DNA of 9,831 bases, taken from a virus. Its lineage: Duplodnaviria; Heunggongvirae; Uroviricota; Caudoviricetes. The stretch is taken from the IMG/VR virus record IMGVR_UViG_2602041644_000006, positions 1-9,831 of that record; one strand, given 5' to 3'. The position numbers were made by a program, and so were the translations under genes. Each line of letters begins with the position of its first letter. The stretch's first letter is position 1. The notes under the pieces were generated by a model, which did not search any database, was not told the origin of the DNA, and saw only the letters and a list, made by a program, of their open reading frames with translations. This document shows positions 1 through 9,831 of the stretch, in pieces.

Positions 1-1314
1 CTAACCTACTGATTTTAATAAGTCTCTTGTGTCACTTTGGTGACCATGGGACATCATTGGGACATAATCTGCCAGCTTCTGATTCAGCATTGCGATCTGT
101 TCTGCATTACTGTCAGTCATCCATGCTCCGTATACATTGAATACCATCTGGGCACTTGCATGGCCCATCTGGCTGGCAATAAAGCTTGGGTTTGCTCCGG
201 CAGATAATGACCAGCACGCATAAGTGTGTCGTGACTGGTATGCTTTCCGGTGCCTGATGCCCGCACGCTTAACGGCTGTTTCCCATGAGTCGCCAATAGA
301 ATCTACCTTGTAGATAAAACCGACCTGTTTGCTTTTTCTAACCACCTGGGGGTTAAATACGAAAGTACATTCATGATTCACTGAGCGCCCATATTCACGT
401 AGTTGAACCTTGATGTGGTGCTGCTTACCCAGTCTTGTCATTTCAGCCTGATTTTTCAGGACACTGATAGCGGGCTGGATAAGATGCACAACCCTGTTTG
501 TACTTGCTTCAGTTTTAGGTAGAGTGAACTCACTGAGTTTCGTATAATTGCGCCTGATAGTAATAGTTCCTGCTTTCAGATCGATATCTTCCCAGGCCAG
601 GGAGACCAGTTCACCGTGACGCATTCCTGTGTACACAGCCAATGACCACAGGTTTTTCGTCTGCTGATGTCGGCAAGCATCTATCAGGCGAATAAATTCG
701 TCACGAGTTAGCGGATCTGGCTCTGCCCTGGCTCTTTTAAGAGGCTTAATTCCCTGGAAGGGATTTGCTTCTAAGTAACCGTGATCTGCAGCAAACTGAA
801 ACATTCCAGCGATAGTTGTCATGTAATAATTTACAGTAACGACGCTCCGTCCTTTTGCTGCTGCTTTGTTTTTCGTTGAATTCTGATACCCGGTCAGTAA
901 ATCTTTCCTGATATACAGCAATTCCTCTTTGGTTACCGATGACACCAGTCTGCTGCCTCCAATTTTCGGAACCATCGTTCTTGCAACGGATTCATAGCGA
1001 TTGAATGCATTTGCAGAGATTTCCATTCGTTTCAGATCCAGCCACTTTTCTTCAAGTTCCTTCACCGTAATTTCTTTTTTACTTACCCCAAAAGCCTGAA
1101 GGTTGGGGGAGTCAGGGAACTGTGCGGCATAATCAAAGCTTCCTGTGCGGATGGCAAAACATACCGATGTCCGCAGTTCCCCGGCGATCTTCCTGTTCTT
1201 GGCAGTGTCAGGGACACCAAGATTTTCCCTGACACGTTTACCTTTAAAATTAAACCAGATGCGTAATGTGCCGCCGTGGTTTTCGACGCCTGTTGGATAT
1301 TTGACTTTATCCAT
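1..1314 (-). CDS. int: Phage tyrosine integrase (site-specific recombinase), 437 aa
   Basis: Complete ORF: ATG at 1312-1314 preceded by a GGAGGT Shine-Dalgarno, stop (TAG) at 1-3 on the window edge. C-terminal half has the R...HxxR...Y layout of tyrosine recombinases (TGMRHGEL, RHTYACWSLSAG, FNVYGAW). Terminal position next to an excisionase-like gene fits a prophage integration module. Confidence 0.9.
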   Translation of the reverse strand: MDKVKYPTGVENHGGTLRIWFNFKGKRVRENLGVPDTAKNRKIAGELRTSVCFAIRTGSFDYAAQFPDSPNLQAFGVSKKEITVKELEEKWLDLKRMEISANAFNRYESVARTMVPKIGGSRLVSSVTKEELLYIRKDLLTGYQNSTKNKAAAKGRSVVTVNYYMTTIAGMFQFAADHGYLEANPFQGIKPLKRARAEPDPLTRDEFIRLIDACRHQQTKNLWSLAVYTGMRHGELVSLAWEDIDLKAGTITIRRNYTKLSEFTLPKTEASTNRVVHLIQPAISVLKNQAEMTRLGKQHHIKVQLREYGRSVNHECTFVFNPQVVRKSKQVGFIYKVDSIGDSWETAVKRAGIRHRKAYQSRHTYACWSLSAGANPSFIASQMGHASAQMVFNVYGAWMTDSNAEQIAMLNQKLADYVPMMSHGHQSDTRDLLKSVG

Positions 1315-1369
1315 TGATACCTCCAGACGCCCAAGAGCGATACGAGCTTACATACTTCATGGCATTAAA

Positions 1370-1606
1370 TCACCCAGGTTGTTTGTTTTTCATTGAAGCG
1401 ACCCAGGCATCTATTGCTTTTCTGTTATACATACATTCACTGGAAGGCTTTGGATTACCGTCTGGTGATACGTGAATATACTCTCTTCCAACCATCCAGC
1501 ATTCTTTCCGGGCCCGAAGAATTGTGCCTGGTTTGAGCCCGGTAATTGCGATTAGAACGCTTTCACAAACCCATTCATTGGGAGCCAGTTGAATCACATT
1601 GCCCAT
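1370..1606 (-). CDS. xis: Excisionase-like small DNA-binding protein (Xis/TorI-like), 78 aa
   Basis: Small basic ORF immediately upstream of int on the same strand. ATG at 1604-1606 has a GAGGT Shine-Dalgarno that overlaps the stop of the preceding gene. The motif WMVGREYIHV resembles the winged-helix core of lambda-type Xis. Confidence 0.55.
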   Translation of the reverse strand: MGNVIQLAPNEWVCESVLIAITGLKPGTILRARKECWMVGREYIHVSPDGNPKPSSECMYNRKAIDAWVASMKNKQPG

Positions 1607-1614
1607 GCATTACC

Positions 1615-1761
1615 TCACACAACACTCAGCCCACGGCAGTGGCACCACACTTCAAACATTCGTTTCACAATTTCACGACAGTAGAAACCGTCAACATCTC
1701 GTGTCAGGTCATAGCGATTGCCGTAACGCTGGTGGACCCATCGTTCAAATGCTTTATTCAT
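1615..1761 (-). CDS. Hypothetical small protein, 48 aa (MNKAFERWVHQRYGNRYDLTRDVDGFYCREIVKRMFEVWCHCRGLSVV)
   Basis: Not in the supplied ORF track; found by hand translation. ATG at 1759-1761 with an AGGAAG Shine-Dalgarno 6 nt upstream; TGA stop at 1615-1617 sits inside the xis ribosome-binding site, fitting translational coupling. Confidence 0.3.
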   Translation of the reverse strand: MNKAFERWVHQRYGNRYDLTRDVDGFYCREIVKRMFEVWCHCRGLSVV

Positions 1762-1764
1762 TCT

Positions 1765-2007
1765 TTACTTCCTTTTCATGGCCCGTAATTTTTTCAGATG
1801 AGCTTCCTGCTCTGTTTCTGCCAGAATTTTGCGGTACTCCTGGTGGTCAATATGTTCGAACAGGCAGTTTAACTCACCAATGCGTACCCGCCCGGATCGT
1901 CCGTCCATCCGTCGAAAGAACACTGAGTGCTCAGTGATGCGAGTAATCACCACGGGGTATCCGGCTCTGTCCGTGTATATCTGACTGCGTTGAATCAAAG
2001 CGAACAT
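1765..2007 (-). CDS. Hypothetical phage early protein, 80 aa
   Basis: The track ORF 1765..2043 starts on TTG; the internal ATG at 2005-2007 (MFALIQRSQIY...) lies 4 nt after the stop of the upstream micro-ORF and is the more likely start. Packed in the same co-directional chain. Confidence 0.4.
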   Translation of the reverse strand: MFALIQRSQIYTDRAGYPVVITRITEHSVFFRRMDGRSGRVRIGELNCLFEHIDHQEYRKILAETEQEAHLKKLRAMKRK

Positions 2008-2011
2008 GTGG

Positions 2012-2095
2012 TTATCCCCATCGACAAATCGAGAACACAACAAACGCTGCTGCGAATACCACCCCCAGAGTTACGATTGCATCACGCCAGCTCAT
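2012..2095 (-). CDS. Candidate 27-aa hydrophobic micro-protein (MSWRDAIVTLGVVFAAAFVVFSICRWG)
   Basis: Hand translation. ATG at 2093-2095 overlaps the TGA stop of the DUF551-like gene (ATGA) and uses its GGAGGTG sequence as a ribosome-binding site. The product is essentially one transmembrane helix. TAA stop at 2012-2014. Confidence 0.25.
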   Translation of the reverse strand: MSWRDAIVTLGVVFAAAFVVFSICRWG

Positions 2096-3018
2096 TGATT
2101 CACCTCCTGCGGCGGTTCTGGCAGCGGCATCCAGTGGGTTACCTCCTTGAGATACAGGTCTTCGCCACCACCGTCATCCCAAGTGGGCTTGCCATCATTA
2201 AACCAGTCGCCATATACGCCGACCTGAGTGTTGGGGATGCTTGGTGGGTAGTTGTTTTTAAAGTCAGCAGCTAACACATAGCATTGTCGCTCTCCCATTT
2301 CTGGCATTCGCTCACTACAGCTTATCCAACCATCCGGAGTTACCGGAACTTGTGGAATGGCTGTCTGCTCTCGAACGTCATTAGGCGCTATAGGTTCTGC
2401 TGCCAACTGACTGGCATATTTGTTAATGGTAACGATAAGCTCTTGCTCAGCCTCATCCAGACAATCACCGATACCTCGCCTGTCACCGTCAAAATCATCG
2501 AAATCGGCACGAATCCTGGCAACCTTCAGGATTGCGGACAACACCTCACTAGGAATTGCCGGATAGTTGGTTGACGTTTCCGCGATTTCCCGAAAATTAT
2601 TGGTTGACGAATTCTTGTTTTCCCGAAAGTTTCCGGACTGAAGCATGGCGGCGCGGCAGGCGTTCCATATTTCGGCAGCAATATCGCGCTCGCTATCGGT
2701 TAATTTGTACGTTGAAACATAGCCAGAGAGCATTTCTACGTTTTCCGGAGTTGCTTCTTCAGGCACTACCGGTGCTGGAGGGGCGGCGTAAATGCCCTCT
2801 ATCACTAAATGTTTGCGCTCAAAATCATCTGGCTCTCGATGATATACGTAACTCCAATCACCAAGGTTATCATTGCGCCTGCAACGGAAACCTATCGGCT
2901 CTGCTTCCAGCGATGCCAGAGCAATTCGTGCCAGTTCCATTTGTTCGCCACGGGTAAGTCCGTTATCAAGCGGATTTTTAATGAATAATTCGATACGTTC
3001 TTTGGTAATAGTGGTCAT
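2092..3018 (-). CDS. Phage accessory protein with a DUF551-like C-terminal domain, 308 aa
   Basis: ATG at 3016-3018 preceded by AAGGTGA. The C-terminus (GDWFNDGKPTWDDGGGEDLYLKEVTHWMPLPEPP) matches the W/P-rich signature I recall for DUF551 domains found on lambdoid early-region proteins. The N-terminal two thirds are acidic and unassigned. Confidence 0.6.
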   Translation of the reverse strand: MTTITKERIELFIKNPLDNGLTRGEQMELARIALASLEAEPIGFRCRRNDNLGDWSYVYHREPDDFERKHLVIEGIYAAPPAPVVPEEATPENVEMLSGYVSTYKLTDSERDIAAEIWNACRAAMLQSGNFRENKNSSTNNFREIAETSTNYPAIPSEVLSAILKVARIRADFDDFDGDRRGIGDCLDEAEQELIVTINKYASQLAAEPIAPNDVREQTAIPQVPVTPDGWISCSERMPEMGERQCYVLAADFKNNYPPSIPNTQVGVYGDWFNDGKPTWDDGGGEDLYLKEVTHWMPLPEPPQEVNQ

Positions 3019-3020
3019 AG

Positions 3021-3212
3021 CTATTTCACCTTAATCTCAACATTTCGCAGCTTTAGCTCTACTGGCAGGTCTGACTTTCCTGTTAATGATAATGCGAGAT
3101 TTTCTGGAGTAATGAGAGCAGTTATTGTTTTCCCCCTCGCCAGACGAATAATCATTCGTATCTCGCGATCGTCACATGCTCCCGGTCGAACAATTGATAT
3201 TTGTCCGTCCAT
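3021..3212 (-). CDS. Hypothetical small protein, 63 aa
   Basis: ATG at 3210-3212 with an AAGGAGAG Shine-Dalgarno; separated by 1 nt from the upstream stop, and its own stop is 2 nt before the next start. Confidence 0.45.
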   Translation of the reverse strand: MDGQISIVRPGACDDREIRMIIRLARGKTITALITPENLALSLTGKSDLPVELKLRNVEIKVK

Positions 3213-3213
3213 C

Positions 3214-3708
3214 TCACTCTCCTTTGATGCGAATGCCAGCGACGCGTAATGCGTGTTCTAGGTCAATCAGGTAAAGCCAACTGCCATTTTCTTTAGGTAT
3301 CATGACATGTCGCTCATCTGCATTTATCGGGTGTCCATATCGAAGGTCGTAGCGAGTCGGTAATTGAACTTCCCGCGCTTCCAGTTCAGCAATACGCTTG
3401 CACCCATCAGAGATAACTCCCTCGTAATACTCGCGCTGCTCGTTGAGTTTTGATTTTGTCTCCTCAAGCTCAACGCGCAGCTTCCCTACCGTTAGCGCAA
3501 TATCCTCGTTCTCCTGGTCGCGGCGTTTGATGTATTGCTGGTTTCTTTCCCGTTCATCCAACAATGCCAGCGCGATATCTGGCGAAAAGTGCTTCATAAA
3601 ATCGTTAAGCGCATTAATTCGCTGATCGAAAGGCATTACAGGTGCTTCACCAGCAATTTTTGTTTTTTCAGCGATTTCACGAAGCTTTTGATAATCAATC
3701 TTGCTCAC
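3214..3708 (-). CDS. Ead/Ea22-like coiled-coil phage early protein, 164 aa
   Basis: GTG start at 3706-3708 overlaps the upstream TGA (GTGA) behind an AAGGAGG Shine-Dalgarno. N-terminus MSKIDYQKLREIAEK and a long charged helical middle resemble Ea22-family proteins of lambdoid phages. Confidence 0.5.
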   Translation of the reverse strand: MSKIDYQKLREIAEKTKIAGEAPVMPFDQRINALNDFMKHFSPDIALALLDERERNQQYIKRRDQENEDIALTVGKLRVELEETKSKLNEQREYYEGVISDGCKRIAELEAREVQLPTRYDLRYGHPINADERHVMIPKENGSWLYLIDLEHALRVAGIRIKGE

Positions 3709-4118
3709 TGGTTGCCTCCTTCGCGAAGCTGTTCAGCAATACTTACGCATATCTCTGCGCCTCTAATCAGCCCCGGAACGTTCTTGTTTGGCCCAACTTC
3801 ACCATCAACAAAATCAATCATCGCGTTACGAGCCATATCCACCCCCTGCGCACGTACTTCAGCCAGGAGAGCGTCGGTAGCTGGGGTTTCCGTGAAGTTG
3901 TCCTCCCAACCGTAGTACTCCTGACGACAGAAGTTATTAAATTCCTTCTCCGACTGTTTAAGCGCCGCATTCTCCGCTGCCAGCGCCGCGCACCTGGCCT
4001 CAAGAGCGGCAACCACTTCCTGATGGTCTTTGTACTTAACGTATGAGCCGGAGATGTCATCACCTTCGGTGTTTAGCCATGCGTCATTGCAATTCACTGC
4101 GTAGGTTCTGATGCTCAT
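3705..4118 (-). CDS. Hypothetical coiled-coil phage protein, 138 aa (start at MSIRTY)
   Basis: The track ORF 3705..4238 has a junk-like N-terminal extension. The internal ATG at 4116-4118 overlaps the stop of the upstream 60-aa ORF (ATGA) and follows GGGAGAG. Contains a helical segment ALEARCAALAAENAALKQ. Confidence 0.45.
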   Translation of the reverse strand: MSIRTYAVNCNDAWLNTEGDDISGSYVKYKDHQEVVAALEARCAALAAENAALKQSEKEFNNFCRQEYYGWEDNFTETPATDALLAEVRAQGVDMARNAMIDFVDGEVGPNKNVPGLIRGAEICVSIAEQLREGGNQ

Positions 4119-4297
4119 GCTGATGCTCTCCCGCCCCTGACAGACGCCAGGCCAGTCAATAAAGTATCCGCAATGCCTACCCTCAGACGTGCGCGCAGGA
4201 TAAATGCCGTTATGACCGGCAAAATATATGCTACCCATTCATCTTGCGTTGCCTGTTCCGCCGCCTCGCGCAGTTCTTGATAGTTAATGTTGCTCAC
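4115..4297 (-). CDS. Small ORF (60 aa) with an Ea22-like N-terminus; possible truncated or frameshifted paralogue
   Basis: GTG start at 4295-4297 behind AAGGAGG, in a junction module nearly identical to the one at 3696..3720. The first ~21 residues (MSNINYQELREAAEQATQDEW) parallel the start of the 164-aa Ea22-like protein; the remainder is low-complexity. Confidence 0.3.
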   Translation of the reverse strand: MSNINYQELREAAEQATQDEWVAYILPVITAFILRARLRVGIADTLLTGLASVRGGRASA

Positions 4298-4533
4298 TGG
4301 TTGCCTCCTTTACGGATCTGCGCTGCGATGCACGAAAAAAAAGACTTTCGCGTATGACTGTTAAGAGCTGGCGCGAACGCCGCGTTAAGAACGGCGGCAT
4401 CACAGCCGTCATCGATATAGAGCGCAATTTTTTTCTCCAGGCGTGCTTTGGCTTCCTGCAACTGCATATCCCGGCACGCACGCGGGATATACTCAGCAAT
4501 TTGAGCGATAGATTTTTCGTTCTGTTTAAACAT
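4294..4533 (-). CDS. Hypothetical phage early protein, 79 aa
   Basis: ATG at 4531-4533 lies inside the end of the upstream gene (AAGCATGTTTAA) after GAGGTG. C-terminus ...QIRKGGNQ is paralogous to the end of the 138-aa protein (...QLREGGNQ). Confidence 0.45.
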   Translation of the reverse strand: MFKQNEKSIAQIAEYIPRACRDMQLQEAKARLEKKIALYIDDGCDAAVLNAAFAPALNSHTRKSFFSCIAAQIRKGGNQ

Positions 4534-4729
4534 GCTTCACCTCGATAGGCTTGATGGTATCGATCAGCAGTCGGCGGCGAGTATTTTCTGCAAAGTGGCG
4601 GCGTCCGGTTTCTTTGTGGTAAAACTCGTTTTTTCCGACGACCCACATCCGCTTTGTCTGGTGCAGTTTTTTTACCTGCGGACCGTCTCGGGTGATAACA
4701 ATTCCTGTATGAGTTTTTATCACGCTCAT
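4526..4729 (-). CDS. Hypothetical basic small protein, 67 aa
   Basis: ATG at 4727-4729 overlaps the TGA stop of the upstream gene (ATGA). Basic composition. Confidence 0.45.
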   Translation of the reverse strand: MSVIKTHTGIVITRDGPQVKKLHQTKRMWVVGKNEFYHKETGRRHFAENTRRRLLIDTIKPIEVKHV

Positions 4730-5088
4730 TTTTTATTCTTCGGTGCTTTCGGCATTACTGCCCAGTGAGTGATATTGACGTTTTCAAGGTCCCCGACCTG
4801 AAATGTCCACAGCCATTCTCCGGTTTCTTTTTGTCCCCAGGTGTACCAGAGAGAACGCCAGCCAATTAGCCAGCCTTCTCCGTTAGCATCAAATAACAGA
4901 ACACTTTCATTTGCTGGCGGCAGTTCAGCTGACACTGGTATTATTTTGTTTTCCAGTGCCGCGCATTTAGCTTCAAGCGCATCGAATTTACGTACCAGGT
5001 ACTCAGCATTTGTTTCATTCACTTTCAGATCTCGTGGTACACATTTCCCGCGAAGAAACCCTTCCATTTCGAAAACATTCATGCGCAT
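4726..5088 (-). CDS. yfdS: YfdS-like prophage protein, 120 aa
   Basis: ATG at 5086-5088 with GGAG 8 nt upstream. Length and position directly after a YfdR-like gene match my recollection of the K-12 CPS-53 yfdP-yfdQ-yfdR-yfdS order. The symbol is assigned from memory, not from an alignment. Confidence 0.55.
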   Translation of the reverse strand: MRMNVFEMEGFLRGKCVPRDLKVNETNAEYLVRKFDALEAKCAALENKIIPVSAELPPANESVLLFDANGEGWLIGWRSLWYTWGQKETGEWLWTFQVGDLENVNITHWAVMPKAPKNKK

Positions 5089-5615
5089 TTGCGTAACTCC
5101 GATAACTCGTTAAAACGTTCCATAAACATCCCGTAGGCATGGCCTGGTGACAGTGGAATAACTTTGAACATCTCTGTCGCCGGGATACCTTCCAGTACAG
5201 GCCAGAAAGAGCCATCATCAAGCCCGAGATCGCGACGTTCGGTTGCCAGCATAATGAGATCGGCATATTTCACTGGCGTGCTCATAACAGGAGGTAACCC
5301 GTATTTCTCACGGATTACGGCGTCTATTTTTTCTTCCATCCGTTTATAGTCAGGAAGAAGGCGTTTCAGTGGAGCTGGGATGTCCTGGCAATACGCTTCT
5401 GTTGCATCATGCATTAACGCTTCAAAAGCAAATTCCTGCGGCACCAGCTGGCTGCAAAGCACCGCATGTTGGGCGACGCTGTAGAAGTGAGAAAGATGAC
5501 CGGCAAAGCGACAGATATTTGAAAGGGAAACCGCGATATCGTTAATAACGATGTCATCTTTATTTATCTTGTCATAATAAAAATGCTTCCCGGAAAAAGT
5601 TTTAATAAATGACAT
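5079..5615 (-). CDS. yfdR: HD-domain phosphohydrolase, YfdR-like (5'-deoxynucleotidase family), 178 aa
   Basis: The track ORF starts on GTG at 5642; the ATG at 5613-5615 (MSFIKTF...) has a GGAGAA Shine-Dalgarno 5 nt upstream. H...HD signature is visible (AQHAVL ... LMHDATEAY). Size and neighbours fit CPS-53 YfdR. Confidence 0.7.
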   Translation of the reverse strand: MSFIKTFSGKHFYYDKINKDDIVINDIAVSLSNICRFAGHLSHFYSVAQHAVLCSQLVPQEFAFEALMHDATEAYCQDIPAPLKRLLPDYKRMEEKIDAVIREKYGLPPVMSTPVKYADLIMLATERRDLGLDDGSFWPVLEGIPATEMFKVIPLSPGHAYGMFMERFNELSELRKCA

Positions 5616-5708
5616 TTTGTTCTCCACGTATATGCGCTGCACCGCGCTGAATTTGGGTAAAAGGAAGCCCTCACCATCCGGTGATTATTGAGTTAATTAC
5701 GTTTCCAT

Positions 5709-5730
5709 AAATGCCCCCGCAGGGGCATTT
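5709..5730. other. Perfect intercistronic hairpin (9-bp stem AAATGCCCC / GGGGCATTT, 4-nt loop) between yfdQ and yfdR
   Basis: Read directly from the sequence. It sits in the 127-nt gap after the yfdQ stop, which is the only sizeable gap in the minus-strand chain. No adjacent U-tract on either strand, so it is probably not an intrinsic terminator. Confidence 0.4.
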
Positions 5731-5742
5731 GCAGTAATGAAA

Positions 5743-6567
5743 TCAGGCGGTGAAAGTACCAATAAAGGTTTCTACTTTGCTGTCTTTGAATTTCTCAACA
5801 AGCAGATCACGAAATTCGTTAGCCATATCTTCCTGCACCGCTTCCAGCTGAATAATGCGCAGAACCAGTACAGGACGATCGCCAGTGATAATGCTGAGGC
5901 GTAATTTAAACGGACGTTCTTTCAGACCTTCAAACGGAACGCATTTAAATTCAAATGCCACTGGCATAATGTCTTTGGTCTTCGCTTCGACAGATTCCAT
6001 CAGGGAGCGTTTGCCGCTGAAGTCATTATCTTCAAAATCAGCGGTCTGGTTTGCTTCAATCGTGATTTTACGGATTGCCGCAGCCGCTTTTGTTGCCTGA
6101 ATGGCGTCACCATTAGCATCAAAGCCCACAAGGTAGTCGGCCCAGTCTTCAATCCATTCTGCCAGTGATTTCTGGGAGTTACGCTCGCCGTTAACAGACA
6201 ACAGGGCAGAGAACGGTGCTGTCTTTTTCAGTTTGAGAGTGGCGGTGTTATCTGCGTGACCTGGTTCATCAATAGTACCCAGGTTAAGCACACTGACGGC
6301 ACGCATATTATCAGCATCGATAAAGCAGCGGGTGCCTTCATCTGCAAGATCTTTAGAATAACGGGTAAAGTCATCGATGCTGGCAGTGGAAAGCGCACCA
6401 CGGAAACGGAAGCGATTTAAATTAAATTTTTCCAGATCATGAATGCGGAAATTCTCAGGCAATGCCACAGCATCGGCACCAATCTTACTGATAATTTCAT
6501 TAACACCCTGAGCAGAAATAAGGGCATGGATTTGATTAATTGCGGTTGCGTCTAAGTTCTGAGACAT
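5743..6567 (-). CDS. yfdQ: YfdQ-like prophage protein (DUF2303-type), 274 aa
   Basis: ATG at 6565-6567 with a GTGAGGA Shine-Dalgarno. Length and position between YfdP-like and YfdR-like genes match CPS-53 yfdQ as I recall it. Confidence 0.7.
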
Positions 6568-6632
6568 AATAAGTCCTCACTATATTAAGATATTCAGTGA
6601 TGAGATAAATAATCAGTTAATTAAGAACGATA

Positions 6633-6995
6633 TTAATGACCTGCTGCGCGGAGTTTTCCGTCAGGTTCACCGGCAAGAGTCAGTAATTGTCCCTGGTCTT
6701 CCTGCAGAATAGTCAGGCGACCACCGCGATTGACATACATCGGCGTTTCGGTGGTGTCTTCTTCAGAAATTTTCCCGCGGTTAGTCGGGCGAACATATGA
6801 GAGTTTGTGTTTGATTTTCACACGGTTCTCATCAAACGGTTCGATTTCCAGGTTGAGCGAGACCTTACCTTTGGTTTTCGTGTTCATCACACCGGAAGCG
6901 ACTTCACTGAGAACTGCGCCGATTTTGGTTTCAAATACGCCGCCGTCCAGCTCCCCGATAAATGCCTGCACATCAGTACTGCGTTCGCTAGCCAT
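6633..6995 (-). CDS. yfdP: YfdP-like prophage protein, 120 aa (start at MASERSTDV)
   Basis: The track ORF 6633..7313 carries a junk-like in-frame extension across the GC-rich leader. The ATG at 6993-6995 has an AGGAGCAG Shine-Dalgarno and gives a 120-aa product. Confidence 0.6.
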   Translation of the reverse strand: MASERSTDVQAFIGELDGGVFETKIGAVLSEVASGVMNTKTKGKVSLNLEIEPFDENRVKIKHKLSYVRPTNRGKISEEDTTETPMYVNRGGRLTILQEDQGQLLTLAGEPDGKLRAAGH

Positions 6996-7043
6996 TTTGC
7001 TGCTCCTCATCATATCGACCCTGCAAGGTCGGTTAGTTTCTCC

Positions 7044-7132
7044 ACAAAACAGAGAAGAACACCTGCGGTGACTGCCGCCCGGATGGATTGGGTTATGAGC
7101 CCGTCGTCCGGTGATGCTCTTCTCTGTTTTGT
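7044..7132. repeat. 15-bp perfect inverted repeat (ACAAAACAGAGAAGA ... TCTTCTCTGTTTTGT) enclosing a 59-nt GC-rich insert with nested short stems
   Basis: Arms at 7044-7058 and 7118-7132 are exact reverse complements. The insert contains further complementary pairs (CCGGA/TCCGG, GCGG/CCGC). Confidence 0.6.
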
Positions 7133-7140
7133 AAAAAGGA

Positions 7141-7177
7141 CGGTACCAGCCGGAAGCAAGGGTACAAGCTGGTACCG
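7141..7177. repeat. 10-bp perfect inverted repeat (CGGTACCAGC ... GCTGGTACCG) with a 17-nt loop
   Basis: Arms at 7141-7150 and 7168-7177 are exact reverse complements, immediately next to the 15-bp inverted repeat. Confidence 0.6.
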
Positions 7178-7396
7178 CCAGGACTACACACAGCATAAAG
7201 TTGTGGTGCCGGGTGCCTCCCGGTGCCTGGCGAAGGTTGCACACCAGGCGGGTGGGTATCCACAGAAGGTCGACTGTCAGCCTCAACCTTAACCCGCGTG
7301 CGCTGAGCCGCATTCACCACAACGCTAAGGATTCTCTCTGGTTGAAAATACTTAGCTGTTATGTGCCTGCTTTTAGCCACATCAGGCGAGGTGGAC

Positions 7397-7448
7397 CTGG
7401 TTATTCCCCAACAACAAGGATTCGGTTAATCTGGTTATCCCCAACAAC
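7397..7448 (+). repeat. Two direct repeats CTGGTTAT(T)CCCCAACAAC, 34 bp apart, just upstream of the 7464 start
   Basis: Copies at 7397-7415 and 7431-7448 differ by one inserted T. A third partial CTGGTT occurs at 7338-7343. The sequence after each core diverges. Confidence 0.55.
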
Positions 7449-7463
7449 GCAAAAGGAAAAGAA

Positions 7464-7898
7464 ATGTCCGGTAATATCTACACGCTATACAAATCCCACT
7501 GTGAAAATGTTGGAAAGTATCGGGGCATTGAAATCAGTGGGGTAGTGTCATCAGTCGAAATAAGCAAAGTTGAATCAAGGGCAACATTACTTACTCTTTT
7601 GGACCTTGTCTTACATGAGCACCGGAAGAAATTCGGCACTCCCTATAATCAGTTGAATGGGAAAAAGGCTCTGGTTCACCTTATTCTGATGAAGCATCAC
7701 TGGATGCCAAAACAGATTAATGAGATGAAATTTGATGAACTTCTTCTTTCAATTCAGGATGAACTCACACTTGATAAAATAAGCGTAACCGCCCAGAAAT
7801 TTTTAGATTATCGAGACTGGAGATCACAAATTCATCACTTTGATGATTTTGACGAAAATGAATGGGATCCTAATTTGTCTGCACAATATCTAAAGTAA
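7464..7898 (+). CDS. AT-rich opposite-strand gene, 144 aa, unknown function (possible moron)
   Basis: ATG at 7464 preceded by AAAGGAAAAGAA. It is the only plus-strand gene left of cro, visibly more AT-rich than the adjacent leader, and its last 29 nt overlap the 3' end of the convergent 68-aa gene. I recognise no family for the product. Confidence 0.6.
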   Translation: MSGNIYTLYKSHCENVGKYRGIEISGVVSSVEISKVESRATLLTLLDLVLHEHRKKFGTPYNQLNGKKALVHLILMKHHWMPKQINEMKFDELLLSIQDELTLDKISVTAQKFLDYRDWRSQIHHFDDFDENEWDPNLSAQYLK

Positions 7899-8076
7899 CA
7901 TCCTGTGATAAAACCGTGATTTCCTGATCCAGTTTTTTTAAGGAGTCTATTGTTTCCTGTCGATAAGACAGCACTTCACGAAGCTGGTTTATAGCTGCCA
8001 GCTTCTTTGTCATCCACTCATAAATTTCCTCATCTGTGTAGCCAGGCGCGACGATTTTGGGTTCTGTTTTGTGCAT
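7870..8076 (-). CDS. First gene of the leftward early operon, 68 aa, unknown function
   Basis: The track ORF starts on TTG at 8091; the ATG at 8074-8076 has a GAGGAG Shine-Dalgarno 8 nt upstream. It lies downstream of the predicted PL and the boxA-like element. The N-terminus is not arginine-rich, so it is not obviously N-like. Confidence 0.5.
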   Translation of the reverse strand: MHKTEPKIVAPGYTDEEIYEWMTKKLAAINQLREVLSYRQETIDSLKKLDQEITVLSQDVTLDIVQTN

Positions 8077-8120
8077 TTCACATCTCCTCAAGTTATCAGT
8101 TACTTGTTGATGGGGACCAG

Positions 8121-8133
8121 ATTGTTAAAGAGC
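8121..8133 (-). promoter_or_regulatory. rrn-type boxA match (GCTCTTTAACAAT on the minus strand) in the PL leader
   Basis: Matches 13 consecutive bases of the E. coli rrn leader boxA (TGCTCTTTAACAATTTA) as I recall it. It sits directly 3' of a hairpin, in the boxB-then-boxA order of rrn leaders, about 45 nt upstream of the 68-aa gene start. Confidence 0.5.
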
Positions 8134-8134
8134 T

Positions 8135-8160
8135 AAGCGTCCTGTAGGGCGCTTTTTTGT
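8135..8160 (+). terminator. Intrinsic terminator on the plus strand (8-bp stem, UGUA loop, U6 tract); on the minus strand the same hairpin is weaker and has no U-tract
   Basis: AAGCGTCC-TGTA-GGGCGCTT followed by TTTTTTGTT. On the plus strand the stem includes one G-U pair; on the minus strand that position is a C-A mismatch. Positioned to stop plus-strand transcripts from the 144-aa gene before PL and cI. Confidence 0.6.
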
Positions 8161-8241
8161 TGCTAACGAATCATCCTGGACTTCATATGCCCCAGGCGGC
8201 TACTTCGTGGGCGTCCTGCCTGTTCGTTATCTTTGATATAA

Positions 8242-8270
8242 AATCTAACTTAACTTAGTTATTATGGCAA
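8242..8270 (-). promoter_or_regulatory. Candidate PL promoter (-35 TTGCCA, 17-nt spacer, -10 TAGATT) overlapped by an operator
   Basis: Read on the minus strand: TTGCCA (8265-8270), 17 nt, TAGATT (8242-8247). The operator 8245-8258 spans the spacer and -10. It lies directly downstream of the cI stop, the expected position for OL/PL. Confidence 0.4.
8245..8258. promoter_or_regulatory. OL-type operator CTAACTTAACTTAG (CTAA-N6-TTAG family)
   Basis: Same 14-bp dyad pattern as the two sites between cI and cro. Extra CTTAG half-site-like motifs occur at 8281-8294 and 8303-8311. Confidence 0.5.
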
Positions 8271-8323
8271 GAGAAAACACCAAACTTTTCTTAGTTCGGT
8301 GCCTTAGTTAGAGAAGAGAGGTC

Positions 8324-8950
8324 TTAGAGTTCGTATTGAACTCCTTTGACTACACCAATGATAAGGCAATTACCATTGATAGGGATGTTGGGATACCGAG
8401 GATTTAATGGCACTAAAAACTTTTGAGGGCCATCGATGACTAATTTTTTTACTGTAGCTTCGTTTGTTCCATCAAGTCGAGCGATGACTATTTTTCCATG
8501 ACGAGGTTCTGCATCTGGATCTACAATCACTGTTGCGCCTTCTGGTATTGTTGGGAGGCCATTAGGGTTAGTCATGGAGTCACCTTTAACCTCTAATGCA
8601 AATGAGTTATCACCAATCTTTAATGATGTATCTACCCACTTGTCCACTTCACTAAACACTTCTGCTGCCCTGCACTCAGTAAACTGCCCAGCCTGAACCC
8701 ACGATATTACAGGAACTCTGCGCATGTTTGTGACGAGTTTGCCTTCAAACTCAGCACCATAAAGAATGTAATCTATTGACGTATTGAAGAACTTCGCTAA
8801 TTTCGAAAGTGCCTCCCCACCAGGGGTATTGATGTCTTTCTCCCAGTACCCCACAGCAACGTCGCTTACTCCACAAAATTTACCCAATTCTTTCTGGGAC
8901 GTTCCGGTAACTCTTCTCAGAGCTTTTATACGCTGACCAACCGTTTCCAT
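8324..8950 (-). CDS. cI: CI-type prophage repressor (HTH plus LexA-like S24 autopeptidase domain), 208 aa
   Basis: N-terminal helix-turn-helix (QKELGKFCGVSDVAVGYWEKD), an Ala-Gly cleavage-site candidate (VQAGQF), and the Ser/Lys dyad context (GDSMTNP ... TVKKLV). Divergent from a cro-like gene across an operator-rich 97-bp spacer. Confidence 0.9.
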   Translation of the reverse strand: METVGQRIKALRRVTGTSQKELGKFCGVSDVAVGYWEKDINTPGGEALSKLAKFFNTSIDYILYGAEFEGKLVTNMRRVPVISWVQAGQFTECRAAEVFSEVDKWVDTSLKIGDNSFALEVKGDSMTNPNGLPTIPEGATVIVDPDAEPRHGKIVIARLDGTNEATVKKLVIDGPQKFLVPLNPRYPNIPINGNCLIIGVVKGVQYEL

Positions 8951-8972
8951 AGGAGCACCATTTCTTGAATTG

Positions 8973-8986
8973 CTAAGTAATCTTAG
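8973..8986. promoter_or_regulatory. OR-type operator CTAAGTAATCTTAG (perfect CTAAG/CTTAG dyad)
   Basis: 14-bp palindrome in the cI-cro spacer, just upstream of the predicted PR -35. Confidence 0.55.
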
Positions 8987-8992
8987 TTTTTA

Positions 8993-9021
8993 TTGACCAA
9001 AGATAGATTTGTAATTAGCAT
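8993..9021 (+). promoter_or_regulatory. Candidate PR promoter (-35 TTGACC, 17-nt spacer, -10 TAGCAT)
   Basis: TTGACC at 8993-8998 and TAGCAT at 9016-9021, flanked by operators, about 27 nt upstream of the cro start. Confidence 0.45.
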
Positions 9022-9035
9022 CTAACAAAACTTAG
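9022..9035. promoter_or_regulatory. OR-type operator CTAACAAAACTTAG
   Basis: Second CTAA-N6-TTAG site, centred 49 bp from the first and directly after the PR -10, where bound repressor would block PR. Confidence 0.55.
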
Positions 9036-9047
9036 TTTGGAGGGCGT

Positions 9048-9248
9048 ATGACAACTGACGATATCGAAAGCTACTTCGGCAGTATTGAGAAAGTTGCTGC
9101 TTTTTTCGGCATAACAACTGAAGCCGTTTATCAGTGGCGAAACCGTCCGGGCCAGTTAATTCCAAAAGGACGTGCAGCAGAAGCTGCATATAGAACTTGC
9201 GGACGGTTGCCATTTAAACCTGAGCTTTATGAAAAATCTAATGGATAA
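9048..9248 (+). CDS. cro: Cro-like small HTH regulator, 66 aa
   Basis: ATG at 9048 with a GGAGGG Shine-Dalgarno. Divergent from cI, with a helix-turn-helix-like segment (IEKVAAFFGITTEAVYQWRNR). Confidence 0.75.
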   Translation: MTTDDIESYFGSIEKVAAFFGITTEAVYQWRNRPGQLIPKGRAAEAAYRTCGRLPFKPELYEKSNG

Positions 9249-9831
9249 ATCGATTAACAGAAACCACAGAACGATGAGGCTAACCGTGGGTAAGCATCAC
9301 TGGAAAGTAGAAAAACAGCCTGAGTGGTACGTGAAAGCTGTCAGAAAAACTATCGCAGCGTTGCCGGGTGGTTACGCTGAAGCAGCTGACTGGCTGGATG
9401 TAACAGAAAACGCATTATTTAACCGCCTTCGTGCCGATGGCGATCAGATTTTCCCGCTGGGATGGGCAATGATTTTGCAACGTGCTGGTGGAACTCACTT
9501 CATTGCTGACGCTGTGGCGCAGTCTGCAAATGGCGTCTTTGTGTCTCTTCCTGACGTCGAGGATGTGGACAACGCCGATATTAACCAGCGCCTGCTGGAA
9601 GTCATTGAACAGATTGGCAGTTATTCCAGACAGATTCGTTCGGCAATCGAAGACGGTGTGGTGGAACCGCATGAGAAGACAGCAATTAACGAAAAAATGG
9701 TGGAAAGTACGTGTCGAACGTGTAGGTATCCCGATGTTAACAGCCATCCCCCTACTGACATTGCCGCAATTTATTATGCTGCAATACGTCAAAGGGAAAG
9801 CGGAAAGTTGGCCTGGACTGTCATTGTATGA
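9241..9831 (+). CDS. CII-like / YdaT-like regulatory protein downstream of cro (start uncertain)
   Basis: Long ORF right after cro ending in TGA at 9829-9831. In-frame starts are possible at 9172 (inside cro), 9229, 9241 (ATG overlapping the cro stop) and GTG 9286 (with GAGG upstream). Family assignment is by position and general character only. Confidence 0.55.

Follow-up and report, generated by a model that had tools for sequence, protein, structure and literature searches.

How transcription from an early phage promoter passes an accessory gene that is oriented against it is the question raised by the locus described here, which lies in a tailed-phage (Caudoviricetes) sequence, IMG/VR virus record IMGVR_UViG_2602041644_000006. 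Positions 1 to 9,831 of this record were analysed (the window, 9,831 nucleotides in all). The window is 100% identical to Escherichia phage vB_EcoM-689R6 and to prophages adjoining icd in E. coli. The element in question, at 8121–8160, consists of a hairpin and an adjoining boxA of the rRNA operon (rrn) type, and is located downstream of the early leftward promoter PL. The original prediction, made by a model from the letters alone, had described the two as a feature of the PL leader. They are instead a separate, autonomous module that forms the promoter-proximal boundary of a convergent accessory-gene cassette, and they are not a property of the PL leader. This module unit probably recruits host rRNA antitermination factors so that phage transcription crosses the accessory gene. 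The features needed for the argument are the following, where ORF denotes an open reading frame.

8242–8270, minus strand: PL-like sigma-70 promoter, overlapped by operator-like AACTAAG repeats
8165–8228, minus strand: conserved structured leader RNA, the first ~65 nucleotides of the PL transcript
8135–8160, plus strand: predicted intrinsic terminator of rightward transcription (8 bp stem with a G·U pair and five GC pairs, loop UGUA, U6 tail)
8121–8133, minus strand: rrn-consensus boxA, GCUCUUUAACAAU in the PL-sense RNA, 1 nucleotide past the hairpin
8103–8123, minus strand: near arm of a long-range inverted repeat, AAUCUGGUCCCCAUCAACAAG, beginning within the last boxA bases
7870–8076, minus strand: 68-residue ORF, the first in the PL sense, with a 29-nucleotide overlap at the convergent ORF's 3′ end
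7464–7898, plus strand: convergent accessory ORF of 144 residues
7405–7447, minus strand: far arm of the repeat in two tandem copies (7428–7447 and 7405–7418), just past the convergent ORF's start codon

PL had been predicted upstream of the element, and a PL-like promoter of the form TTGCCA-17-TAGATT was found there, at 8270–8242 on the minus strand. We infer a transcription start near 8235, because conservation with phages of other immunity types begins at ~8228–8236; the boxA would then lie ~100 nucleotides into the PL transcript. The sequence GCTCTTTAACAAT occurs exactly once in the window, at 8121–8133 (minus strand), and equals the boxA of the E. coli rrnB leader at 13 of 13 positions, which confirms the 13-base match that had been claimed. 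The number of exact matches to this 13-mer expected by chance in 2 × 9831 nucleotides was estimated as ~3e-4. Within it, GCUCUUUAACA at 8123–8133 (minus strand), downstream of PL, fits the gamma-proteobacterial consensus GYUCUUUAANA (GYTCTTTAANA in DNA; PMC5725501) and is the sole exact PL-sense match in the 43-kb phage record. The boxA of lambda nutL (CGCTCTTAAAAA) departs from this consensus, and the phage site was rightly called the closer of the two to rrn. The affinity of NusB:NusE is 5–8 nM for the rrn boxA and 80–90 nM for the lambda nut boxA (PMC2800207). In its core the phage site has the sequence of the rrnG/rrnB boxA. Neither the 18-kb prophage locus nor the 43-kb phage record yielded a second boxA on the PR side as an analogue of nutR.

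The hairpin was evaluated on both strands. On the plus strand it reads AAGCGTCC-TGTA-GGGCGCTT followed by TTTTTTG, with the stem-loop at 8135–8154; the RNA has a folding energy of −12.1 kcal/mol, eight continuous pairs and a U-run. The minus-strand RNA (−7.5 kcal/mol) has a C·A mismatch and no U-run, and an A-tract precedes the hairpin. By these measures 8135–8160 is predicted to be an intrinsic terminator on the plus strand only, as the original prediction had stated. Its stem is a generic unidirectional terminator with a built-in G·U/C·A asymmetry, which was found in 56 unrelated phage contexts that have no boxA, and the loop is freely variable among copies of the module (TACA, TATA, ATA, CGTA, ATC and others). 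In an unrelated viral contig, L283, this terminator stem, which reads AAAAGCGCCC-N4-GGACGCTT on one strand, occurs at five sites; it is also present in many other phages.

The hairpin was rejected as a specific boxB-like protein site on account of the loop variation and the generic stem, and no conserved phage protein travels with it. Of the proposal that one element acts both as a terminator and as a nut-like signal, the terminator half thus stands and the nut half does not. The module resembles a lambda-type nut site in lying in an early leader just after PL and in carrying a boxA, which in nut recruits NusB/S10. The nut order is, however, boxA, spacer, boxB, which is reversed here; the nutL boxA (CGCUCUUAAAAA) deviates from the consensus and binds ~10-fold more weakly (PMC2800207); and nut requires N on a conserved boxB loop, whereas the module has a variable loop and no N was found. 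By the criteria for a lambdoid N–nut system the module falls outside it. The first encoded protein is not arginine-rich, as had been noted: the 68-residue ORF contains two arginines and no arginine-rich motif. No N-like protein was detected among the ORFs scanned in the early left and right operons; therefore, any function of the boxA must be N-independent, one of the two mechanisms that had been suggested. One might still regard the hairpin as the boxB analogue of a reversed nut site, used with boxA and Nus factors by an unrecognized phage antiterminator as in lambda, P22 and mEp021, given that a hairpin adjoins boxA in a lambdoid early leader. An unconserved loop, a stem that is a generic terminator elsewhere, the lack of any arginine-rich or N-family protein among the scanned ORFs and of any conserved ORF with the module, and an order (hairpin, then boxA) that is that of rrn and not of nut make this extremely improbable. 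The `Nus-dependent' phage mEpimmI (PMC11893012) was considered and set aside as a different system with an N-like protein (Gp17).

The distribution of the module was determined by scanning viral contigs with the 3′ stem arm plus boxA as the query. This yielded 122 copies in 60 unique variants with a shared build: an A-tract, AAGCGCCC-loop-GGACGCUU, 0–1 nucleotides, GCUCUUUAA(C/A/U)AAU and then usually CUGGAUAUCC. The module is present, unannotated, in 804 of 5426 complete E. coli genomes (~15%) and in 23 Enterobacterales species representatives, including Citrobacter, Enterobacter, Kosakonia, Buttiauxella, Raoultella, Symbiopectobacterium and Sodalis. Only about one-fifth of the loci that contain the leader RNA carry it, and it is not in SfV, ST64B, e14 or mEp460. 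Conversely, it also follows PL leaders that give no match to R1, the covariance model of the leader RNA (16 of 34 diverse loci, Citrobacter locus L330 being one).

The constant companion of the module is a convergent gene. An opposite-strand ORF of at least 75 residues ending no more than 250 nucleotides after boxA was found at 36 of 36 unique loci with leader and module; by the same criterion it was found at 26% of 90 leader-only loci, where many of the ORFs are mechanical. Such an ORF is also present at all 69 unique module loci and at all 23 genome loci. These ORFs differ widely in sequence and in length (78–255 residues), and no conserved ORF accompanies the module. Phage mEp460_4F5 provides a natural control: its repressor, operators, PL and leader are as in the window, the leader runs into a co-directional ORF, and the hairpin, the boxA and the arms are all absent. 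Hairpin and boxA are thus not a feature of the PL leader, as first proposed; they are missing here despite the same PL and leader. The hairpin is best read as the cassette's own terminator, because the module is tied to convergent ORFs and is missing in mEp460_4F5, which has no convergent gene. At loci L004, L311, L330 and others, unrelated convergent ORFs share a common own-strand 5′ untranslated region (UTR) and start region, TTAATCTGGATATCCCCAACAACAA..AGAGTAYTCAA.GTG. This looks like an accessory-gene hotspot, in which the flanks stay fixed and the payloads are swapped.

Two features were missed by the original prediction, namely the structured RNA at 8165–8228, considered below, and an inverted repeat whose near arm starts inside boxA. 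In the window the near arm is complementary to 7428–7447 and, better, to 7405–7418, ~650 nucleotides downstream; the two arms bracket the 144-residue ORF, with the own-strand terminator of that ORF downstream of it at 8135–8160. The tandem far-arm copies are UUGUUGGGGAUAACCAGAUU and UUGUUGUUGGGGAAUAACCAGGU, of which the distal one is used in the minimum-free-energy (MFE) fold. A 766-nucleotide PL-sense RNA (z = −2.0) is predicted, in the MFE and the centroid structure alike, to close the helix, to form the hairpin and to leave the boxA unpaired. At other loci a far-arm consensus, UUGUUGGGGAUAUCCAGAUUAA, occurs 300–800 nucleotides after boxA, at the start of the ORF. Variants of the two arms are compensatory (GGAUGACU/AGUCAUCC, AAUCAGUUUGGUGA/UCACCAAAUUGAUU and GGAUACCCC/GGGGUAUCC). 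In an alignment of 36 arm sequences 92% of the cells pair and double changes occur in 10 of 14 pairs, values that are inflated and partly circular because the far arms were located by a complementarity search. The 13–14 contiguous pairs in divergent arm families cannot be chance. Arm positions that are not Watson–Crick in the PL-sense RNA are G·U in 26 cases and A·C in four, an excess that rests on perhaps 11 versus 4 independent events, and the PL-sense duplex is more stable than that of the opposite strand in 32 of 42 arm pairs. The G·U excess and this stability bias point to selection on the leftward RNA, and not on the DNA or the cassette mRNA.

At the level of sequence, the module reproduces the rrn layout together with an extended boxA that goes beyond the 12-nucleotide core. 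The order of elements in rrn leaders and spacers is the same: hairpin, 1–2 nucleotides (1 in the module), boxA. In the rrnB leader, the boxB hairpin is followed by AC, by UGCUCUUUAACAAU and then, after at most 3 nucleotides, by the leader strand of the 16S leader–trailer helix, the partner of which lies after 16S. In the rrn 16S–23S spacer the hairpin is followed by U and UGCUCUUUAAAAAUCUGGAUCAAGC, which is identical at 19 of 19 positions to the module variants with A at position 10; this A10 variant, GCTCTTTAAAAATCTGGAT, equals the rrnB spacer boxA region (L333, ~163–181). In both rrn and the module a strand of a long-range helix starts no more than ~3 nucleotides from boxA and encloses a long untranslated RNA, and AAUCUG/CAGAUU bases occur in both helices. 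The module differs from rrn in that it encloses, in a loop of ~0.3–0.8 kb, the antisense of a protein-coding accessory gene and no rRNA or tRNA operon, and in that its hairpin doubles as an opposite-strand terminator. After the module boxA no GU-rich boxC (UGUGUGGG) was found, and only AAUCUG is common to the rrn boxC region. The phage unit is a mimic of the rrn leader and not a member of that class, because the enclosed RNA is antisense to a protein-coding ORF and is not an rRNA or tRNA operon.

A further likeness was found in phage T7. The 18-mer GCTCTTTAACAATCTGGT, comprising boxA and the next five bases, is identical at 18 of 18 positions in the T7 early leader (L334, 413–430), where it lies between promoter A3 and the RNase III site R0.3, a few bases before the R0.3 hairpin; this sequence has been noted as a boxA in the annotation of T7. 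Like the module, it belongs to an early operon transcribed by the host RNA polymerase in a phage without N, and an RNase III-type helix follows soon after boxA. The differences are that T7 is virulent, that its boxA has no repressor, PL or convergent gene for context, and that the helix downstream of it is local and not long-range. A literature search for the exact sequences returned only the T7 fragment. The identity to the rrn spacer boxA (19 nucleotides) and to the T7 early boxA (18 nucleotides) supports the phage boxA being a real NusB/S10 site and suggests that the functional element may be longer than the usual 11–12-nucleotide consensus; the candidate NusB:NusE target in the module RNA is the 19-mer GCUCUUUAACAAUCUGGUC. 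In all three sequences (the T7 leader, the rrn spacer and the phage module) the bases after boxA are AAUCUGG(U/A).

Recombination at the DNA level has to be weighed against these likenesses. The boxA and the arms could be flanks for homologous recombination, or the terminal inverted repeats of a mobile cassette, with a boxA that hitch-hikes without any RNA function next to a hairpin that is a terminator. Very different ORFs (78–255 residues) do lie between the same flanks, which are near-identical across hosts and include the shared 5′ UTR of the convergent genes; both arms are inverted repeats in the DNA as well; and there are copies with a decayed boxA and cassettes without the module. Such a linker, however, has no need of an 18–19-nucleotide match to the rrn spacer and T7 boxA regions. 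Nor does it need the upkeep of every consensus position while neighbouring positions drift: in a set ascertained by the leader, and so unbiased for boxA, the boxA consensus is present in 10 of 10 unique hairpin contexts, while variation is seen in the loop, at the linker base and at position 10 of boxA, which is the N of GYTCTTTAANA. The excess of G·U over A·C and the difference in duplex energy between the strands are signs of selection acting on the PL-sense RNA and not on DNA, and no target-site duplication consistent across loci was evident at the arm ends. We therefore consider this explanation unlikely, though worth keeping in view.

Stand-alone consensus boxA sequences that act without phage proteins, as is proposed for the module, occur upstream of CRISPR arrays, where boxA shields a long untranslated transcript from Rho (PMC7665894), and in the 5′ UTR of suhB, where it represses rather than protects (PMC5725501). 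Both differ from the module in being chromosomal host loci with no opposite-strand terminator or flanking inverted repeat. Repression of the suhB type would here mean that NusB/S10 at boxA, 45 nucleotides upstream of the 68-residue ORF, blocks translation and so leads to Rho termination and attenuation of PL. A boxA less than 50 nucleotides from a start codon is the arrangement used for finding suhB-like targets (PMC5725501), and the ORF has a strong Shine–Dalgarno sequence close to the near arm. Yet the 68-residue ORF is restricted to the window-type cassette and is missing from most other module loci; most module variants have no co-directional ORF after boxA, and in many the convergent stop codon follows 9–25 nucleotides on. 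Repression of this type cannot, therefore, explain the conservation of the module, and we judge it very unlikely.

The reading we prefer, to which we give about an even chance, is that of a boundary with two jobs: a terminator for the cassette in the rightward direction, and boxA-driven, Rho-resistant PL transcription in the leftward direction. The cassette would have been inserted in opposite orientation into the early leftward operon of an N-less lambdoid prophage of the SfV/e14 type. Rightward, the hairpin and its U-tract would stop the cassette transcript before PL, the left operator and the repressor gene. Leftward, PL transcription would pass the weakened hairpin, because on that strand the G·U pair becomes a C·A mismatch and there is no U-tract. 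The exposed boxA may then bind host NusB–S10 and nucleate an rrn-type Nus complex (NusA, NusG and SuhB) without phage N, and the modified polymerase would be Rho-resistant over ~0.4–0.9 kb of untranslated RNA antisense to the cassette. In the window this antisense region has no PL-sense ORF of more than 54 codons over 406 nucleotides. For the rrn transcription antitermination complex (rrnTAC) to assemble, boxA is required and suffices by itself, and boxA-anchored looping is thought to promote the leader–trailer helix (PMC10250234). A boxA tethered to the polymerase may hold the near arm ready for the far arm, and a helix of the leader–trailer type would loop out the antisense RNA in vivo and may be cut by RNase III.

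Several points weigh against this proposal. Complexes of the rrn type are known to be poor against intrinsic terminators. Convergent cassettes without boxA directly after the leader exist (L124 and L098), which means that boxA can be dispensed with in crossing a convergent gene and that the module is not the sole solution. The antisense RNA is only mildly C-rich, and C-richness was accordingly set aside as a signature of Rho utilization (rut) sites. The boxA is decayed in a few relatives (GATCTTTAACAA in L284; CACTTTTGAAC in L290 and L301). Its conservation alone is no proof of selection on boxA, because conservation is high throughout the module and extends to the hairpin arms, for which Nus factors are not required. 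The circularity of the pairing statistics and the small number of independent G·U events count on the same side, and support for the mechanism in this phage group is computational.

The structured RNA that precedes the module was analysed separately. Its elements, all in the PL-sense RNA, are as follows.

8228–8223 with 8170–8165, minus strand: helix P1
8220–8210, minus strand: invariant hairpin GGC-AGGAC-GCC
8196–8192 with 8179–8175, minus strand: helix P2

This leader is common to SfV, SfII, SfIV, PhiR29, ST64B, 118970_sal3, ZF40, YeP1, AH07, SPN3UB, mEp237 and e14 of E. coli K-12 (upstream of ymfJ), which differ in immunity region and downstream genes. A scan of viral contigs with an invariant 22-mer gave 130 copies with 85 distinct sequences. 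When 40 diverse copies were aligned, 96.6% of the cells were paired and compensatory double changes occurred in 10 of 14 pairs; none of 500 shuffles reached these values, slid controls collapsed and RNAalifold gave the same fold. The leader RNA has a far wider distribution than the module and is the true common feature of these PL leaders. In viral contig L098 a convergent ORF resembling a membrane protein (~0–700 nucleotides after the leader) is inserted inside an R1-type leader, and the 3′ half of the leader is duplicated past the insert.

In Rfam no family covers the leader or the module, and there is no put family. The leader RNA is like put of HK022 and HK639 in that each is ~65–70 nucleotides long, forms two stem-loops and opens the PL transcript in a lambdoid phage that lacks N. 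It is unlike put in that R1 gave no match (E ≤ 10) at HK022 putL or putR or at the annotated putL of HK639, and in that the PR operon yielded no second copy, as a putR analogue, either in the 18-kb prophage locus or in the 43-kb phage record. An assignment of the leader and boxA region to HK022-type put was rejected on the R1 result. The AGGAUGA that both have lies in a hairpin loop in putL (numbering of PMC9378689) and in a junction in the leader RNA, and the resemblance of CAGGAUGA to put was dismissed as a positional coincidence. We treat the leader RNA as undescribed, and as resembling put in position only. R1 gave no significant match to lambda either. The lambda PL leader (L309, 571–579) shares the 9-mer GCAGGACGC with the invariant hairpin, which may be chance, and the lambda PL transcript also has a small hairpin, with an AUGAAG loop.

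This leader opens a division of labour as a further explanation. The RNA at 8165–8228 would be the real processive antiterminator, acting on RNA polymerase in the manner of put, and boxA would aid no more than the folding or RNase III processing of the long-range helix, or be redundant for readthrough. The leader is indeed far commoner than the module (130 matches, 85 of them unique), lies at the PL 5′ end in many immunity types and has an invariant 22-nucleotide core with covarying stems; the PL operon holds an intrinsic terminator, which should withstand a boxA complex acting by itself; and in both T7 and rrn the boxA adjoins helices processed by RNase III. The leader is, however, not a member of the put family and has no second copy in the PR operon, and the module follows non-R1 leaders at 16 of 34 loci, which makes the boxA independent of the leader. 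We hold this division to be quite unlikely. Returning to the two-job boundary, an extended form of it can be put forward tentatively, as a possibility with the balance against it: the cassettes may carry a portable copy of the rrn leader (a hairpin in the boxB position, boxA and a leader–trailer helix) that recruits the host rrn antitermination and RNA-chaperone complex, so that the antisense copy would be transcribed in a Rho-resistant manner, looped out and perhaps excised by RNase III, and the convergent gene would leave the operon unbroken, while the second structured leader RNA alongside may represent a new class of polymerase-directed antiterminator.

The function of stand-alone boxA and the architecture of rrn leaders are already known; what is new is the context, a cassette-borne, N-independent mimic of the rrn leader in the early operons of temperate phages. 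To our knowledge, few targets of boxA/Nus control have been identified outside rRNA operons and N-dependent phages (suhB and CRISPR arrays). No description of the module or of the leader RNA was found in the searchable literature, the coverage of which is incomplete. If correct, the proposal would mean that phages engage the rrn antitermination complex widely and without N, through a module of their own that occurs in ~15% of complete E. coli genomes and in many Enterobacterales. It would also explain how an essential operon of a mosaic prophage can accommodate accessory or defence-type genes of opposite orientation, and would provide a compact natural setting in which the model of boxA-anchored looping for the leader–trailer helix can be studied on a non-ribosomal RNA. 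The leader RNA is a separate lead, concerning terminator readthrough in phages of the SfV, e14, ST64B and Gifsy types, which have neither N nor put.

The window as a whole is the integrase-to-immunity part of a lambdoid prophage of the SfV/e14/ST64B type. Its remaining features are listed below.

1–1314, minus strand: int
Between int and the STnc100/PasD-like RNA: xis, then homologues of yfdR, yfdQ and yfdP
7130–7353, minus strand: STnc100/PasD-like prophage small RNA region, in the PL operon before yfdP, ending in a strong intrinsic terminator
8254–8309, minus strand: three operator-like AACTAAG repeats, the probable left operator OL
8324–8950, minus strand: LexA-type cI
8982–9037: two further AACTAAG repeats, the probable right operator OR
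9048–9248, plus strand: cro, with a CII-family gene next

The late genes are served by a Q-family protein. The heptamer AACTAAG/CTTAGTT occurs five times (3 + 2), only in the two intergenic regions that flank cI, and none of 200 shuffles reached five; the repeats are probable operator half-sites (OL and OR) of this immunity type. SfV and e14 have a terminator-like hairpin between cI and PL; here none was found in the interval from the stop codon of cI (8324) to PL. The 144-residue convergent ORF is labelled `ECs1072 family phage-associated protein' in RefSeq, and a literature search on ECs1072 gave nothing useful. Searches of Pfam and PADLOC with this ORF, the 68-residue ORF and a 171-residue cassette ORF gave no match, and PHROGs gave only families without an assigned function (phrog_5286 for the 144-residue and phrog_1744 for the 68-residue ORF). 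The region at 7130–7353 aligns over the full length of the Rfam STnc100 model (RF02076) with 42.4 bits, below the gathering score of 47, and an E value of 1.2e-6; it is best described as an STnc100/PasD-like relative and is conserved in SfV, ST64B, e14 and mEp460. RefSeq labels part of it as a frameshifted hypothetical coding sequence, and a mechanical ORF of 226 residues (6633–7313) crosses it, the portion upstream of the yfdP start being probably spurious.

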